Part shown: in pieces, positions 27,411 to 63,141 of the stretch
Position numbering within the stretch: the first letter of the stretch is position 1
Layout: every line of letters begins with the position of its first letter
NCBI GenBank assembly: GCA_000004985.1
Contig: GG738862.1
Source: Naegleria gruberi
Taxonomy: Eukaryota
DNA: 64,000 nucleotides
Strand: one strand, 5' to 3'
Program-made: the position numbers and the translations under genes
The notes under the pieces: generated by a model
Database searches by the model: none
Seen by the model: the letters and a program-made list of their open reading frames with translations, nothing else
Told to the model about the DNA's origin: nothing

Positions 27411-29209
27411 ATGGAATCTCAAAAAAAAATGGCAACAACACCTTTGGATCTTTATATTCCGTCCCTGAATAGAACCTTGGATAACATGACGCTGTTGTAC
27501 TGCCAACTTCCTCTCTTTGAAATTGAAGGATTGAGTAGAGAAAAAGTTCCTGTATTTTCTAATGGTCTATGTCCTGACACGTGGTCGACATTTGGCACGG
27601 CCTTGACATTTCTGGTGGTGTATGTTGTGCAATTAGTGGCCAGTCTCGTTCTTATTATATGGAAGAGAAAAAATGGTTTCATTGTGGCCAGAAATCCTGT
27701 ATATATGGTAATGGCCAGCTGGTCAACTGTGGTTTATGTCTTGTTGGGTTCTATTAGGTTTTTAGTTGGTCGGAAAATCTTCCCATGTGCACTTTATACA
27801 TTTAGTTACTTTTTATTTCCTCCTACAATGATTTTACCAATCACATTGAGATGTACGAGGGCTTTCTTCTTGTACAAGGTTAGTTTCAAATTTATTCGAA
27901 TTGAAAATCATGAAATTGATGATTTAAATTTATGATATTTTATTGGATATCATGATGATAATGATTGGACATTTGGAAATTCTAGTTGAACTTGCTCAAA
28001 ACTAAACTTTTTGAAGAAATTCCAAAGAAGGACCCACAAACTAAACCAAAAGAAAGTGAATTAACCAAAGCCACTCCTCCATCCTCTCTCACTATTTCTA
28101 ATTCAGCGATTTCTGATATGGACAATACTTCATCAATATTGTCCACATCTGCTCTCAAGATTGCGATGGAAGAACCAGAAGACGAATTCACAAATTCAAC
28201 TAGAATCTCAGATCTCTCACAAAAGAAAGACTTTCGTCTATTGAAAGTCTACGAGTTTCTTTCTGGAAAGAAAATCATGACTATTGCCTACTTGACTGGT
28301 TTTGCATTGAGTATTGGAACTTGGTTACTGTTTGGAGTCATTGAGGAAGCTGCCTATTCGAATGATCCTAATCCAGAAAAGAAGAGAATCTTTCTCATAG
28401 AAGGAGGAATGTTAGTTTTCACAGTTGGTTGTTCAGTAACCATCACCGCTGTTCTTATCATTGCCATTTTGTGTTTGATTCTTATTGTTTTTGAGGTTTC
28501 GTTTTTAATTTTACTTTTCAAATCAGATCGTGACACTTGGAATATCAAGAAGGAAACGTTTGTGCAATTGATCTTCCAGATATTGGTTGGAATTCTATTT
28601 ATTGTGCTGAGTCAATTGCATGATTTTGATACAATGATTGATTACATGTGGCCTTACGCTAATGTTATATTTTATTACTTGTTGATTGACAATTTCATTT
28701 GTACCATATTGCCTATCATTTATGCAATTAGAAAGGATAGGAAAGATTCCAATTTTAATCAGAATGTGGATAAGGTGGAAGAGAAATCAGATTTGGAACG
28801 AATTTTGAGTGAGAAGAAAACATTTGATGTGTTATTGGATTTTGGAAGAAGAAGTTATTGCACGGAGAGTATTTTGTGTTATCGAGATATTCAAGATTAC
28901 AAAAAATTGAAAAAGCTTGCCACAAGAAAGAAGCTTGCTATGAGAATAATCAATTCCTATCTCAAGAAGGACTCTCCCTATGAATTGAATATGCCAAAGA
29001 TTGAACAAAGAGGTGAAGAATTGAAATCTATTGTAGAAAATAGTGATGAAATATCTAGAGATTTGTTCCAATCGATACAGGAACATTGCATGAATGATAT
29101 GAAAGATGTCTTTGAAAGGCTAAAATCATCTAATAAGGAGATTCAATCATTAATTACATCATGGAAAAGCAATTCTCAATCAGGTGCTGTTTCAACAGAA
29201 TTGAATTAA
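27411..29209 (+). CDS. Seven-transmembrane receptor fused to C-terminal RGS domain; exons 27411..27878, 27986..29209
   Basis: A 107-nt GTTAGT..TCTAG intron joins two ORFs in frame. There are 3 TM helices in exon 1 and 4 in exon 2. RGS box FDVLLDFGRRSYCTESILCYRDIQDYKK... Confidence 0.65.
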
Positions 29210-29369
29210 TCATTCAAGAACAACAAACAAATCATAACACGTTAGGTTCTCCATTAATTGGTATTATCAGCTTGAAAATACTTTTGAAATCGAATGAGCA
29301 ATCTCTTTGAACGGTCGAGGTTTTGACCTGGGTGCTCATCCAATATTGAACGAATTGAACAAAAATAAA

Positions 29370-30172
29370 CTATTGTTTCTTCCTTTTCAATTCATTCAAT
29401 TGGTGTGTAAGAACATTTGTCAATTCAAATTGATTCAACAGCACCGATTTGATAGTTCCAATCTCCTCTCTTTGTGCATACTTTTTCTTTCCATCATTTC
29501 TTGTTTGAGATTCCCTCTTGTTTTTAATGAATCTGTACGGATCCTCAGTAAAGTATATTATATTTTCCTTCTCTTCCTTCTCTGGGCTCTCACCAGAGAT
29601 GGTATTTTGAGCAATTTCTTTCTCAATTTCTATCTTCTTTTTTGATTTTAACCTTTCAAGTTCTACATTCTAAATATCAAAAAATTGTTGAATTCTATTC
29701 CTTGAAAATAAAAACATACAATTTCTGCTTCAACAATTTCCTCAATTGACATTGTAGGTTCATCCTCAAGAGACAAATCTGATGTATTCTTTGATAAGAG
29801 CAAAATTGGATTTCTCTTCAATGCCTCCTTTTGAATTTTCTTATTATAACTTCCATCCAATATTTCCTTCATGGTTGGTTTGGTGATTCGGGGAGGTTTC
29901 TGCTCAACTTTCTGAGGAGATGTTGGCGAAGAGCAAACAGATTTCGATCTTTGAATTGGTTCTTCCATTCTGATGAAGGTAAATTTGTCATCCAAAACTT
30001 CAGCAGGTAATTCCGAAGTGAATATTTCCTCTCGTTCCTCTTCATTATCAATTTTGAGAAACCCCAGAATATTGACAAACATTCTCTCATCCAAATACTT
30101 TTCAGCAGTTAGAAAACTACCATCCCTTTCCAACAATGATTCATTTGATGTATCCATTACAATTTGTTCCAA
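29370..30172 (-). CDS. Hypothetical acidic coiled-coil protein, 2 exons (29720..30172, 29370..29669)
   Basis: Exon 1 ends ..EEIVEAEI at GTATGT. A 50-nt intron ends TTTAG. Exon 2 NVELERLKSKKKIEIEKE...LNELKRKKQ* is in phase. The ORF-track stop was intron read-through. Confidence 0.55.
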
Positions 30173-60450: not shown

Positions 60451-60861
60451 TCAATTTAATTGACTATTGTTTTGCTGCATTGCAACAACTAATTTATTTA
60501 TTAATCAAATTAAATTATTGAATAAACAATCTATTTATTTAGACTATTTTTGAAGTTTGCAGAAAATCAAAGTGCATCATCCAATTTCAAACATTGGCAC
60601 TTTTAACCTTGTTGCGCTCCAATGGCAGTTTTTGAAATAAACATCTTCCTCTCTCCGAATACTACTGTCATAAGAGGCGTCGTTACTGTAGTATGCTATT
60701 ATCAACAAACTACGTTGCTACTGAAACCAAACGTGCTTTAAAAGGAATTGATTAAGTTTGAGTTCACATTTTTGAAGTCTGGTTGCTTATTGCATTCGAA
60801 AATTCAACTCTCACCTTGAATTCGGGTATTTAGGATGACTTGTTATCACTCAACAAAAAAA

Positions 60862-63141
60862 ATGGGCAAACTCCGCCTCTCAACAAGATTGTTTCAATCA
60901 TCATTATTTCTCCTACTCGTTTTGTGTGTTTTATCCAACCAACAACAGCTGCAACAGGAAAATTGGTATGACTCTTTGAGTGACAGTTGGGTGGATGCTT
61001 ATGTTTCATCTTATCTCAACGCATACATGTGGAAAACCTCATCTCTCGCATCTACAACCATTCAGTCAAGAGATGGTTTGATTCAATATTTGAGAGGAAC
61101 AAACCATACGGCTGGTCAATCGCAGCAGAGTGTGAAAATTGGGGTTTTATATCACAAGGTTGATTTGGAACATGTGAAAAACATGTGGCAACAGGTGAAG
61201 GAGTTTTATGGATGGACATCAGACATGGACACGTTCAAGTATTCATTTCTTACAGTAGATGACATGGATTTTACATGTAGACAATTTCATGCATTTGATG
61301 ATTTTGATATTGTCGTTACGAGTGAGGAATACTTTTATAAGATTGTTAGAGTTTTTAGAACAGGAAATAGGAAGGATAATGGGATTTGGTACACATACGA
61401 AGATTTTCAAAGTTATTCGATTGTTCCAATTAAGATTTTACAAATAGCAAAAGAACCGAATATCTATTCGATTGTCAATTATTTAGAATCTAGAATAGAT
61501 TCAAATTGCACTAATAGTAGTGTTATTTATCAACATGATAGCACTGAAGAAATCATTTACAAAATAATATCAAACTCTTTAAATGGAACTATTTATGAAA
61601 ATTCGGATTTTCAAAGATTTGTAAAGAAATTTAGTCCAAATTCATTAATATTGAGTTCAAACTCTGTGGAAGATTTGAAGTCACTCCTCATATCAAGACT
61701 AAATTACGGGTCGTCTTCATCAAATTATTATCAAAATTTCAAAACTTTCCTTCGACCAAATTGCACACAATGTCTCAATGATTTTTGTGCATCTGTCAGT
61801 TTCATACAGACTGATTATTGGATTGTTCCGAGTACAGTTATGGTAATTCTCTATTTTGCAGCTCTGTTTCTCTCCAAAGCTTTTCTAACACCTTCTATTA
61901 AGAGAAGATTATTGATTCCCTATCTTCCATTTATAATTGTTTATATTGAATCTCAATATTTGAGTCCAATTCTCAATTATTGCTCAAGAGGAAGATTGTT
62001 AATTCTTGGATTTGTCATTAATTGGTATCTCATAACTTATGGATTGACCATTATTAGATTGTACTTGTTGAGAAATATGTACACTTTGATTTCGAAATCA
62101 AAATTTTCAAATATTAGAATTCAAAAGATACTCTCAGGAGATTTAATAGGAATAGTTCTAACAGGAGGTTTATCTTTCCTAATTACCTGTTTCATTTCTC
62201 TTCCTTTCTATTTCGTTTTCCTCCCTCAAGATCAATACCTTTTCAGTAGCATCTTTATTGGAATAAGTGTAGTTTTGGGAAGTCTTTTGTCATTACTTGG
62301 AGTTGTTATTGATATAATTACCAATAGAAAAAAGTTCTCAAAGAAAGGTATCAGTTATTACATTTTCTTTGATGATCCATTCATGATAAGAATTGAACTC
62401 TTGTCACTTGCCATGATTACCATTCTTGTTGTAATTCTTGGAACATTGAATTTATATGGAATACCAGTAAGTTTATATTCATGTGAGTGACTCTAACTGT
62501 TGTCTTCTTTTTAACACCTACAGGATCCTGCTGAAATTCATTTGGAAGAATTCTTTAGATTTCTCATATTCGTTCTGGTTATCATAAATTCAGGAGGAGT
62601 TTTCACAATCAAATTCATCTTTTCAAAGATTATGAGAATTAACAAGACACATCATGAAATTTCAGATATTGAACAATTTCTAAAAAACGACGAGTTTAGA
62701 AACTTGTTACAAGAATATTGCAGAAAGGAAATGTCTCTGGAAAATATGGTTTGTTTCGTTCATTTGGAAGAATTGGAAAAGAATGGAGAAAAACCATTGG
62801 ACTTGGCAACAATGAAAGATTTTGAGAAGAATTACATTGAGAATAATGCAATTTATGAGATTAATATTGCTTCCTCTCTGAAAAAGTCATTTTATGATTT
62901 GATGAGAAGGTGTGAAAATTCAAGTCAGGTCAATAAGAGTGGAACTGAGCTTAGTCAATTTGGAGAATCAAAGGAAAATTTGAATGTTGATTCGTCACTT
63001 CCTAAAGTTAAAGAACTTATTGACCTTTTGAAAACTTCAATTTTACAAAATCTTGGTGATACTCTTTCACGATTAGAAACAACGAGTCAATTCAAGCATT
63101 GGTATGAAGTTTATAACATTCAATCCAAGAATCAAGTTTAG
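60862..63141 (+). CDS. Signal peptide, ectodomain, 7TM and RGS receptor; exons 60862..62466, 62524..63141 (alternative start 60835)
   Basis: A 57-nt GTAAGT..ACAG intron lies between the TM7 region and the RGS exon (..EFRNLLQEYCRKEMSLENMVCFVHLEELEK..). Confidence 0.7.

Follow-up and report, generated by a model that had tools for sequence, protein, structure and literature searches.

Three 7TM-RGS fusion genes of Naegleria gruberi, two of them with a possible solute-binding-protein-like ectodomain

Gene structures and membrane topology

The window, meaning the whole stretch of 64,000 nucleotides of Naegleria gruberi DNA that was analysed, contains three genes on the plus strand, designated g1, g2 and g3 (Table 1). 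A sequence-only reading had described each of them, from these starts, as a seven-transmembrane (7TM) protein followed by an RGS box, which was corroborated by hydropathy, the positive-inside rule and matches to Pfam or family profiles. Seven hydrophobic segments were recognised in each product and their flanking charges fit an N-out/C-in orientation, the short loops of g2 and g3 carrying 3/5/5 Lys and Arg residues inside versus 0-1 outside. DSSP assignment of the structure models likewise gave seven TM helices for g1 and g2. The 7TM bundle of g2 could be superposed on solved GPCRs and is predicted from its model to adopt a GPCR fold; for g1 this fold is not established, because its model, built on a 3-sequence alignment, is poor (pLDDT 43.6). 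In each of the three predicted products the RGS box follows the seven TM helices within a single N-out/C-in polypeptide, and the AtRGS1-like layout that had been suggested is supported as an architecture.

The signal peptide and ectodomain attributed to g2 and g3 were recovered as well: an N-terminal hydrophobic signal-like segment precedes 270-290 aa that contain 6 Cys and 5-6 N-x-S/T sequons. In g1, a 'short-N-terminus' type, ~55 residues are extracellular and include 2 Cys and 2 N-x-S/T sequons; its intracellular loop 2 is long, and its RGS box is canonical. The g1 family conserves Cys at the upper end of TM3 (FPC) and within extracellular loop 2 (GC).

Table 1. Positions of the three genes and their parts in the window
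Feature	Coordinates	Strand	Description
g1	27429(27411)-29209	+	2 exons; 7TM then C-terminal RGS box
g1 exon 1	27429..27878	+	short extracellular N-terminus and TM1-TM3 (hydropathy)
g1 intron	27879..27985	+	107 nt, GT..AG; after residue 156, just past TM3
g1 exon 2	27986..29209	+	~100-aa low-complexity intracellular loop 2, TM4-TM7, RGS box
g1 RGS box	~28793-29107	+	Pfam RGS, residues 426-530, 44.2 bits
g2	34761-36899	+	single exon, 712 aa; one uninterrupted ORF, identical to NCBI model
g2 signal-like segment	34761-34838	+	hydrophobic N-terminal segment
g2 ectodomain	34839-35645	+	~270 aa
g2 7TM	35646-36365	+	seven hydrophobic segments
g2 RGS box with Ser/Thr-rich insert	~36426-36884	+	
g3	60862-63141	+	2 exons, spliced product 740 aa
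g3 exon 1	60862..62466	+	535 aa: signal-like segment, ectodomain, TM1-TM6
g3 ectodomain	60937-61815	+	~290 aa
g3 intron	62467..62523	+	57 nt, GTAAGT..CAG; in-frame stop inside
g3 exon 2	62524..63141	+	TM7 (to ~62616) and RGS box with insert (~62671-63126)

Spliced g1 read from 27429 comprises 557 aa and is exactly XP_002678296.1, an NCBI 'RGS domain-containing protein' of Naegleria gruberi strain NEG-M. An in-frame ATG is also present upstream at 27411, and in a second strain an A-run is 1 nt shorter, which would frameshift a product started there. Splicing restores the frame and creates YK/LNLLKTKLF, matching HKINLQKTKLF and YKINLQKTKLF in paralogues. The Logan contig covering g1 is genomic DNA of another strain in which the g1 intron is still present, so it is no transcript. 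g2 is 100% identical to a Naegleria gruberi protein, and g3 has an alternative ATG upstream at 60835.

Two of the genes had been thought to retain an intron precisely at the junction of TM7 and the RGS exon; the sequence and alignments place an intron there in none of the three. The g1 intron falls at the start of intracellular loop 2, away from the RGS box, and that of g3 in the extracellular loop joining TM6 to TM7, while a single exon encodes TM4-7 and the RGS box in g1, everything in g2, and TM7 with the RGS box in g3. The continuity of the 7TM and RGS parts is therefore fixed at the ORF level, and because TM7 and the RGS box share an exon in 3/3 genes, the concern that an RGS exon might be a separate gene is largely moot.

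The public N. gruberi annotation nevertheless splits g3. Exon 1 is identical to residues 1-535 of XP_002678306.1, a 542-aa model that runs into the intron, and XP_002678307.1 is a separate gene model covering only the last 136 aa of exon 2. If this precise split were correct, g3 would be two genes, one for a 6-TM protein and one for a small soluble RGS protein, and the window would hold two fused genes only. We consider this hardly credible, as the interval between the two parts has the canonical splice boundaries and the in-frame stop of an intron, and its removal restores TM7 with the conserved SGG motif of the family and keeps the product colinear through TM7 with five paralogues (g2, P0002, P0009, P0011 and P0158). 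Moreover, the 136-aa model begins at an internal Met within the RGS box and therefore lacks the first RGS helices, and in the relatives g2 and N. lovaniensis P0003 the 7TM and RGS parts occupy one exon. The spliced 740-aa product was absent from the protein collection searched. Judging from these sequence comparisons, NAEGRDRAFT_66385 and NAEGRDRAFT_66386 should be one 7TM-RGS gene.

Family relationships and genomic arrangement

The three genes had been regarded as paralogues arisen by local triplication. Their paralogy holds in part: g2 and g3 align over their full length (29% identity, E 1e-89, BLASTP) and are paralogues, but g1 matches them in the RGS box only, its 7TM part being not detectably related, and by sequence g1 is a member of a different subfamily. 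A local triplication is contradicted by BLASTP, hhalign and a neighbour-joining tree. The closest paralogues of g1 (40% and 34% identity), the closest relatives of g2 (48-49%) and those of g3 (38% and 34%) are all located on other scaffolds, which argues against any recent local triplication. In the tree, g2 and g3 share a clade of six N. gruberi members but occupy separate sub-branches, and the rest of the clade is again on other scaffolds. As a rough estimate, 50 such genes in a genome of about 41 Mb would yield 0.05 chance triplets within 36 kb genome-wide. The ~24 kb between g2 and g3 are occupied by kinase, F-box and DUF4116 genes, and tblastn of the window detected no further copies or pseudogenes. 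In a comparison of synteny, which had been suggested as a check, the locus of an N. lovaniensis homologue has no shared neighbours and no adjacent family member.

The accompanying idea of an expanded sensory family is supported. An exhaustive HMMER search retrieved 405 representative relatives, and those sampled that carry a name were all from Naegleria gruberi, N. lovaniensis, N. fowleri or Willaertia magna; a further homologue search with the g1-family alignment added nothing. Such a family is also known in the literature: 28 7TM-RGS proteins were reported in N. fowleri (Bosch, Jeck & Siderovski, J Biol Chem 2022, PMC9283941), and outside the animals 7TM-RGS architectures occur widely (PMC3971589). 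The 7TM-RGS family of Naegleria is thus already described. We hold, with a probability of about 80%, that g1, g2 and g3 are members of a large heterolobosean (Naegleria/Willaertia) 7TM-RGS family, i.e., receptor-like membrane proteins with a putative cytoplasmic GTPase-accelerating RGS tail for the α subunits (Gα) of heterotrimeric G proteins.

The RGS box and its predicted Gα interface

The RGS box of g1 scores above the Pfam RGS (PF00615) cut-off of 23.9 bits, and those of g2 and g3 remain below it with 19.6 and 19.5 bits, respectively. A large disordered insert furthermore divides the RGS box of g2 and g3: 30-50 aa long and rich in Ser/Thr, it has a pLDDT below 50 at residues 650-661 of the model. 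Both features could be taken to mean that the g2 and g3 tails are degenerate and serve, without GAP activity, as Gα-binding or effector scaffolds, comparable to the RGS-homology domains found in RhoGEFs and in GRKs, or in some other role. Family-level comparisons point in another direction. PF00615 is matched by 27/42 members of the g2/g3 family (best E 2.1e-9), the g2/g3 family profile matched >20 solved PDB RGS domains (best E 1.8e-5), and hhalign aligned the RGS regions of the g2 and g1 families over 134 columns with 96.5% probability (E 9e-10). On these profile matches, g2 and g3 belong to the RGS domain family at the family level, and a survey that applies the Pfam RGS threshold would overlook both.

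The Gα-contact positions S578, E580, N581, N621, D685 and R689 (g2 numbering) are near-invariant, being retained in 36-40 of 38-40 family members; g2 reads SLEN, ELN and D..R, and g3 SLEN, EIN and D..R. They align with the SEEN and VN / EV(S) loop (loop Asn) of RGS10 and RGS17, and the matching contacts of RGS4 are S85/E87/N88, N128 and D163/R167. Since this S-x-E-N, loop Asn and D..R set corresponds to the residues by which R4/RZ-type RGS proteins contact the Gα switches, its near-invariance speaks for a canonical Gα interface under selection, and the insert sits in a loop between RGS helices. Degenerate tails are accordingly very improbable in our judgement; on account of the insert and the Pfam scores, g2 and g3 are putative GAPs. 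g1 conserves the contacts only partly: the S-x-E-N position reads C-T-E-S (Glu kept, Asn replaced by Ser), with ELN and D..R present. In a search of the g1-family profile against the PDB, RGS proteins were the only matches.

Ectodomain and proposed mode of signalling

Apart from the RGS box with its disordered Ser/Thr-rich insert, the g2/g3 subfamily is characterised by a signal peptide, a ~280-aa ectodomain, a Cys-x4-Cys stalk and a 7TM part of predicted GPCR fold. Pfam searches with six ectodomains matched no family in g2 or g3, and a 20-sequence family ectodomain profile found no match among PDB sequences. One distant family member, on the other hand, has an ectodomain that reaches 24.2 bits for Pfam NMT1/THI5-like (cut-off 20.5), while that of another scores 14.2, below it. 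Foldseek with a g2/g3-type ectodomain returned YehZ (4wep) and EgtUC (9egh, 9o5f) at probabilities of 0.91-0.98, with a weak E of ~0.03 and low TM-scores of 0.25-0.29. Based on these model comparisons, the g2/g3 ectodomain may derive from the type II periplasmic solute-binding-protein fold (NMT1/SsuA/OpuAC-like). Our literature search found no report of a solute-binding-type ectodomain in 7TM-RGS proteins.

Class C GPCRs combine a Venus-flytrap domain with a Cys-rich linker and a 7TM part, but Pfam ANF_receptor and 7tm_3 were matched neither by g2 and g3 nor by 42 family members, and the output of the window proteins is a fused RGS domain. The class C ectodomain is of type I fold, whereas that of g2 and g3 may resemble type II binding proteins (NMT1/OpuAC-like). 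In the mammalian GPR158/GPR179-RGS7-Gβ5 system the RGS protein is separate and recruited in trans, in contrast to the RGS box of g1-g3, which is fused in cis. AtRGS1 is not known to have a large ectodomain, and g2 and g3 differ from it in their signal peptide, their ectodomain of 270-290 aa and their split RGS box. What this glucose-responsive plant GAP for AtGPA1 of Arabidopsis shares with the window genes is the 7TM part with a cytoplasmic RGS box and, presumably, the logic, its Gα exchanging nucleotide spontaneously (PMC9283941).

Closest in layout are the 7TM RGS proteins of N. fowleri (Nf 7TM RGS1-4 and 24 others), which come from the same genus and likewise place a C-terminal RGS domain after an N-terminal 7TM region. 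Like the window genes they belong to a large family that is lineage-specific and varies in its extracellular N-termini. Their characterised members carry EGF-like, lectin and GPS motifs (PMC9283941), which g2 and g3 lack in Pfam, having the possibly solute-binding-protein-like ectodomain instead; g1 differs from them in being almost without an ectodomain. Pfam likewise gave no match to GPS/GAIN, EGF or lectin repeats in g1, g2, g3 and the family members.

In plants and many protists, 7TM-RGS proteins have been proposed as the receptors for 'GAP-controlled' G-protein signalling, and to our knowledge a ligand is known, or a ligand-binding domain recognisable, for very few of them. We know of no 7TM-RGS protein for which exchange activity has been shown. 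The proteins encoded by g1-g3 might still be conventional GPCRs, that is, ligand-activated exchange factors whose tethered RGS domain is a built-in timer or Gα anchor and not the primary output. Nevertheless, their sequences resemble none of the Pfam GPCR families, and several Gα subunits of Naegleria activate themselves without requiring an exchange factor (PMC9283941), which makes such a role unlikely. In N. fowleri, Gα5 and Gα7 are self-activating, and the RGS domains of 7TM-RGS proteins exert GAP activity on Gα2, 3, 5 and 7 (PMC9283941). By analogy, we infer that g1-g3 encode GAPs that bind ligands and whose GAP activity is ligand-regulated. Within a GAP-controlled scheme, the RGS tail would keep self-activating Gα subunits GDP-bound, either the ectodomain or the 7TM bundle would perceive an extracellular cue, and the cue would alter the availability of the GAP activity, so that G-protein signalling might be either released or restrained.

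For g2 and g3 we tentatively go one step further, at somewhat less than even odds: they may represent an undescribed receptor class whose solute-binding domain, bacterial in type (type II, NMT1/OpuAC-like), is joined to a 7TM part of GPCR fold and an RGS GAP. Such a 'Venus-flytrap'-style small-molecule sensor would control GTP hydrolysis, not nucleotide exchange; its origin would be separate from that of class C GPCRs, and its expansion would have taken place in Heterolobosea. If the ectodomain is indeed solute-binding-protein-like, it would be a tractable, soluble domain that could be expressed for ligand screening, and the control of a fused RGS domain by an extracellular cue would become testable. 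The genus also includes the lethal pathogen N. fowleri, and the homologues of g2 and g3 in N. fowleri and N. lovaniensis (P0012, P0010, P0003) are labelled 'RGS domain-containing protein'.

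Gene models and exon structure

Three plus-strand genes of the window (AT-rich eukaryotic DNA, G+C ~33%), here g1, g2 and g3, each encode seven TM helices followed by an RGS box, as the sequence-only reading had proposed and as hydropathy, the charged-loop pattern, Pfam RGS for g1 and family-level RGS evidence for g2 and g3 bear out. The models were built from the sequence itself. The g2 ORF encodes, with 100% identity, a protein that NCBI lists as 'predicted protein [Naegleria gruberi]' from a 502-kb scaffold, and XP_002678296.1 ('RGS domain-containing protein') exactly matches the g1 product from the second ATG. 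The run of A between these two ATGs is shorter by one base in a genomic contig from a different N. gruberi strain (Logan ERR1078381; L001, near 110-130); this frameshifts the first ATG and makes 27429, which NCBI also uses, the likely start.

Positions of the 7TM-RGS genes, their parts and neighbouring genes in the window
Feature	Position	Strand	Remark
g1	27411/27429-27878 + 27986-29209	+	two candidate ATGs
g1 start region	27411-27431	+	both ATGs and the A-run between them
g1 intron	27879-27985	+	107 nt, GT..AG
g1 intracellular loop 2	about 27986-28270	+	residues 149-252
Calmodulin-like	30421-30873	+	four EF-hands (EF-hand_7, E 1.7e-23)
Leucine-rich-repeat protein	32909-34324	+	
g2	34761-36899	+	712 aa, one exon
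Basic-repeat ORF	37300-38436	-	378 aa
F-box protein	40193-40852	+	
DUF4116-repeat gene	41376-42953	-	6 repeats matched, E 3e-51
Protein kinase	43606-44646	-	Pkinase, E 7e-33
F-box protein	52519-54330	+	
DUF4116-repeat gene	56984-58840	-	10 repeats matched, E 5.5e-94
g3	60862-62466 + 62524-63141	+	740 aa spliced
g3 intron	62467-62523	+	57 nt, GTAAGT..CAG, in-frame stop inside

Public annotation splits g3 into two models (NAEGRDRAFT_66385 and NAEGRDRAFT_66386; XP_002678306.1 and XP_002678307.1), the former product of 542 aa running on into the intron and the latter of 136 aa beginning at a Met within the RGS box. A 15-billion-protein collection has no entry for the spliced product, which is colinear with five paralogues through TM7, conserved SGG motif included. 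Against this colinearity, two separate genes are highly improbable, and the intron unites both public models into a single predicted 7TM-RGS protein. An intron exactly between TM7 and the RGS exon, claimed for two genes, is absent: that of g1 lies past residue 156, directly behind TM3, that of g3 falls in the TM6-TM7 loop, and g2 is intronless. Each gene has TM7 and the RGS box, as a minimum, within a single exon, so that the fusion is independent of splicing.

RGS box, topology and ectodomain

The RGS box of g1 is a clear Pfam match (44.2 bits, cut-off 23.9), whereas g2 and g3 score slightly below the threshold (19.6 and 19.5 bits) owing to a Ser/Thr-rich insert, 30-50 aa long, that interrupts the box. 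A profile of four g2-type tails matched more than 20 solved RGS domains (best RGS17, 1.8e-5, and RGS10, 2.3e-5), PF00615 was matched by 27 of 42 family members (best E 2.1e-9), and hhalign matched the boxes of the g2 and g1 families along their entire length (96.5% probability, 134 columns). This family-level evidence settles the predicted identity of the g2 and g3 tails as RGS boxes. The low individual scores might invite the view that these boxes are degenerate and serve as scaffolds only; we give this very little credence, as the positions aligned with the canonical Gα contacts (S-x-E-N, the loop Asn, the C-terminal Asp/Arg) are near-invariant in the g2/g3 family alignment. In g1 the first contact motif reads C-T-E-S.

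Hydropathy places seven TM segments in each protein and a signal-like N-terminal segment in g2 and g3, whose ectodomains hold 5-6 N-glycosylation sequons and six cysteines. The short cytoplasmic loops carry 3, 5 and 5 K/R and the extracellular loops 0-1, which fits a predicted N-out/C-in topology that places the RGS tail in the cytoplasm. The g1 structure model (three-sequence alignment, pLDDT 43.6) is unusably poor, and its helices coincide with the seven predicted TM segments. In the g1 subfamily, intracellular loop 2 is long, of low complexity and poorly conserved; it spans ~100 aa in g1 and P0006 and ~190 aa in P0007, a length unusual among GPCR-like proteins.

Sequence searches with g2, g3 and a 20-member ectodomain profile returned no ectodomain match. 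The non-GPCR matches among the top 50 Foldseek hits were solely bacterial type II solute-binding proteins, namely E. coli YehZ and the S. pneumoniae EgtUC binding domain (probability 0.91-0.98, E ~0.03, low TM-scores). The ectodomain of a distant family member reaches 24.2 bits for NMT1/THI5-like, a type II binding-protein family (Pfam cut-off 20.5), and a second member 14.2 bits. On the Foldseek and distant-member Pfam matches, a solute-binding-protein origin of the g2/g3 ectodomain is plausible, with slightly better than even odds.

Proposed signalling role

N. fowleri possesses 28 7TM-RGS proteins, and EGF, lectin and GPS motifs occur in those ectodomains that were described; the RGS domains of three act selectively as GAPs on Gα2, 3, 5 and 7, Gα5 and Gα7 are self-activating, and AtRGS1-like receptor-GAP signalling has been proposed (Bosch, Jeck and Siderovski 2022, PMC9283941). 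Such architectures are common outside animals, and N. gruberi shows a lineage-specific Gα expansion (De Mendoza et al. 2014, PMC3971589). The three genes are thus of a known kind; what is new here is the corrected g3 model, together with an ectodomain type that may be new. Our literature search found no solute-binding-type ectodomain in this class.

By analogy, the fused RGS tail would most likely act at the membrane, speeding GTP hydrolysis on self-activating Gα subunits. A cue from outside the cell, perceived through the ectodomain (g2 and g3) or the 7TM bundle (g1), would alter GAP activity, so that ligand would switch G-protein signalling through hydrolysis, not exchange. An ordinary GPCR to which an RGS domain is tethered appears unlikely beside such a receptor-GAP. 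Near-invariant cytoplasmic motifs (PSIKRR past TM1, RxxYLRNLY past TM3, FFDDP ahead of TM6) are candidate coupling or regulatory surfaces, and the Ser/Thr-rich insert is, speculatively, another.

Family relationships and neighbouring genes

The 'paralogous triplication' of the sequence-only reading proved largely wrong. Paralogy holds for g2 and g3 (29% identity over the full length, E 1e-89), whereas g1 resembles them in the RGS box alone. The closest relatives all lie on other scaffolds: NAEGRDRAFT_69987 (40%) and NAEGRDRAFT_64078 (34%) for g1, NAEGRDRAFT_64339 and NAEGRDRAFT_68613 (48-49%) for g2, and NAEGRDRAFT_67552 (38%) and NAEGRDRAFT_69334 (34%) for g3. In a neighbour-joining tree, g2 and g3 fall on separate sub-branches within a clade of six N. 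gruberi members; ~24 kb containing kinase, F-box, DUF4116-repeat and other genes separates them, and tblastn found no further copies in the window. These observations argue for expansion without recent local triplication, while an ancient local duplication, among the ancestors of g2 and g3, is possible. The expansion itself is borne out by the 405 representatives that the g2-family profile retrieved in an exhaustive HMMER search (E ≤ 1e-3; 76 of them ≤ 1e-30). About 25 share the entire ectodomain-7TM-RGS layout; relatives of 1200-2200 aa from outside the window (P0065, P0084, P0121, P0132) have the 7TM and RGS parts alone in common, and their predicted ectodomains must be very large and different. 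All named representatives, as sampled, come from N. gruberi, N. lovaniensis, N. fowleri or Willaertia magna.

Among the neighbours, the calmodulin-like gene lies immediately downstream of g1. Two F-box genes and one leucine-rich-repeat gene within 20 kb suggest several ubiquitin-ligase adaptor-type genes in the region. The kinase ends in a hydrophobic segment (LLLLAGCLIGGTFLALG), suggesting that it may be tail-anchored. The basic-repeat ORF has no Pfam match; its N-terminus is signal-like, its C-terminal half is extremely basic with Cys-Ala-Ala-Pro-Lys-Arg-rich repeats (KRKCAAPKKRVV...), and the opposite strand carries a spurious Ser/Trp-rich ORF.
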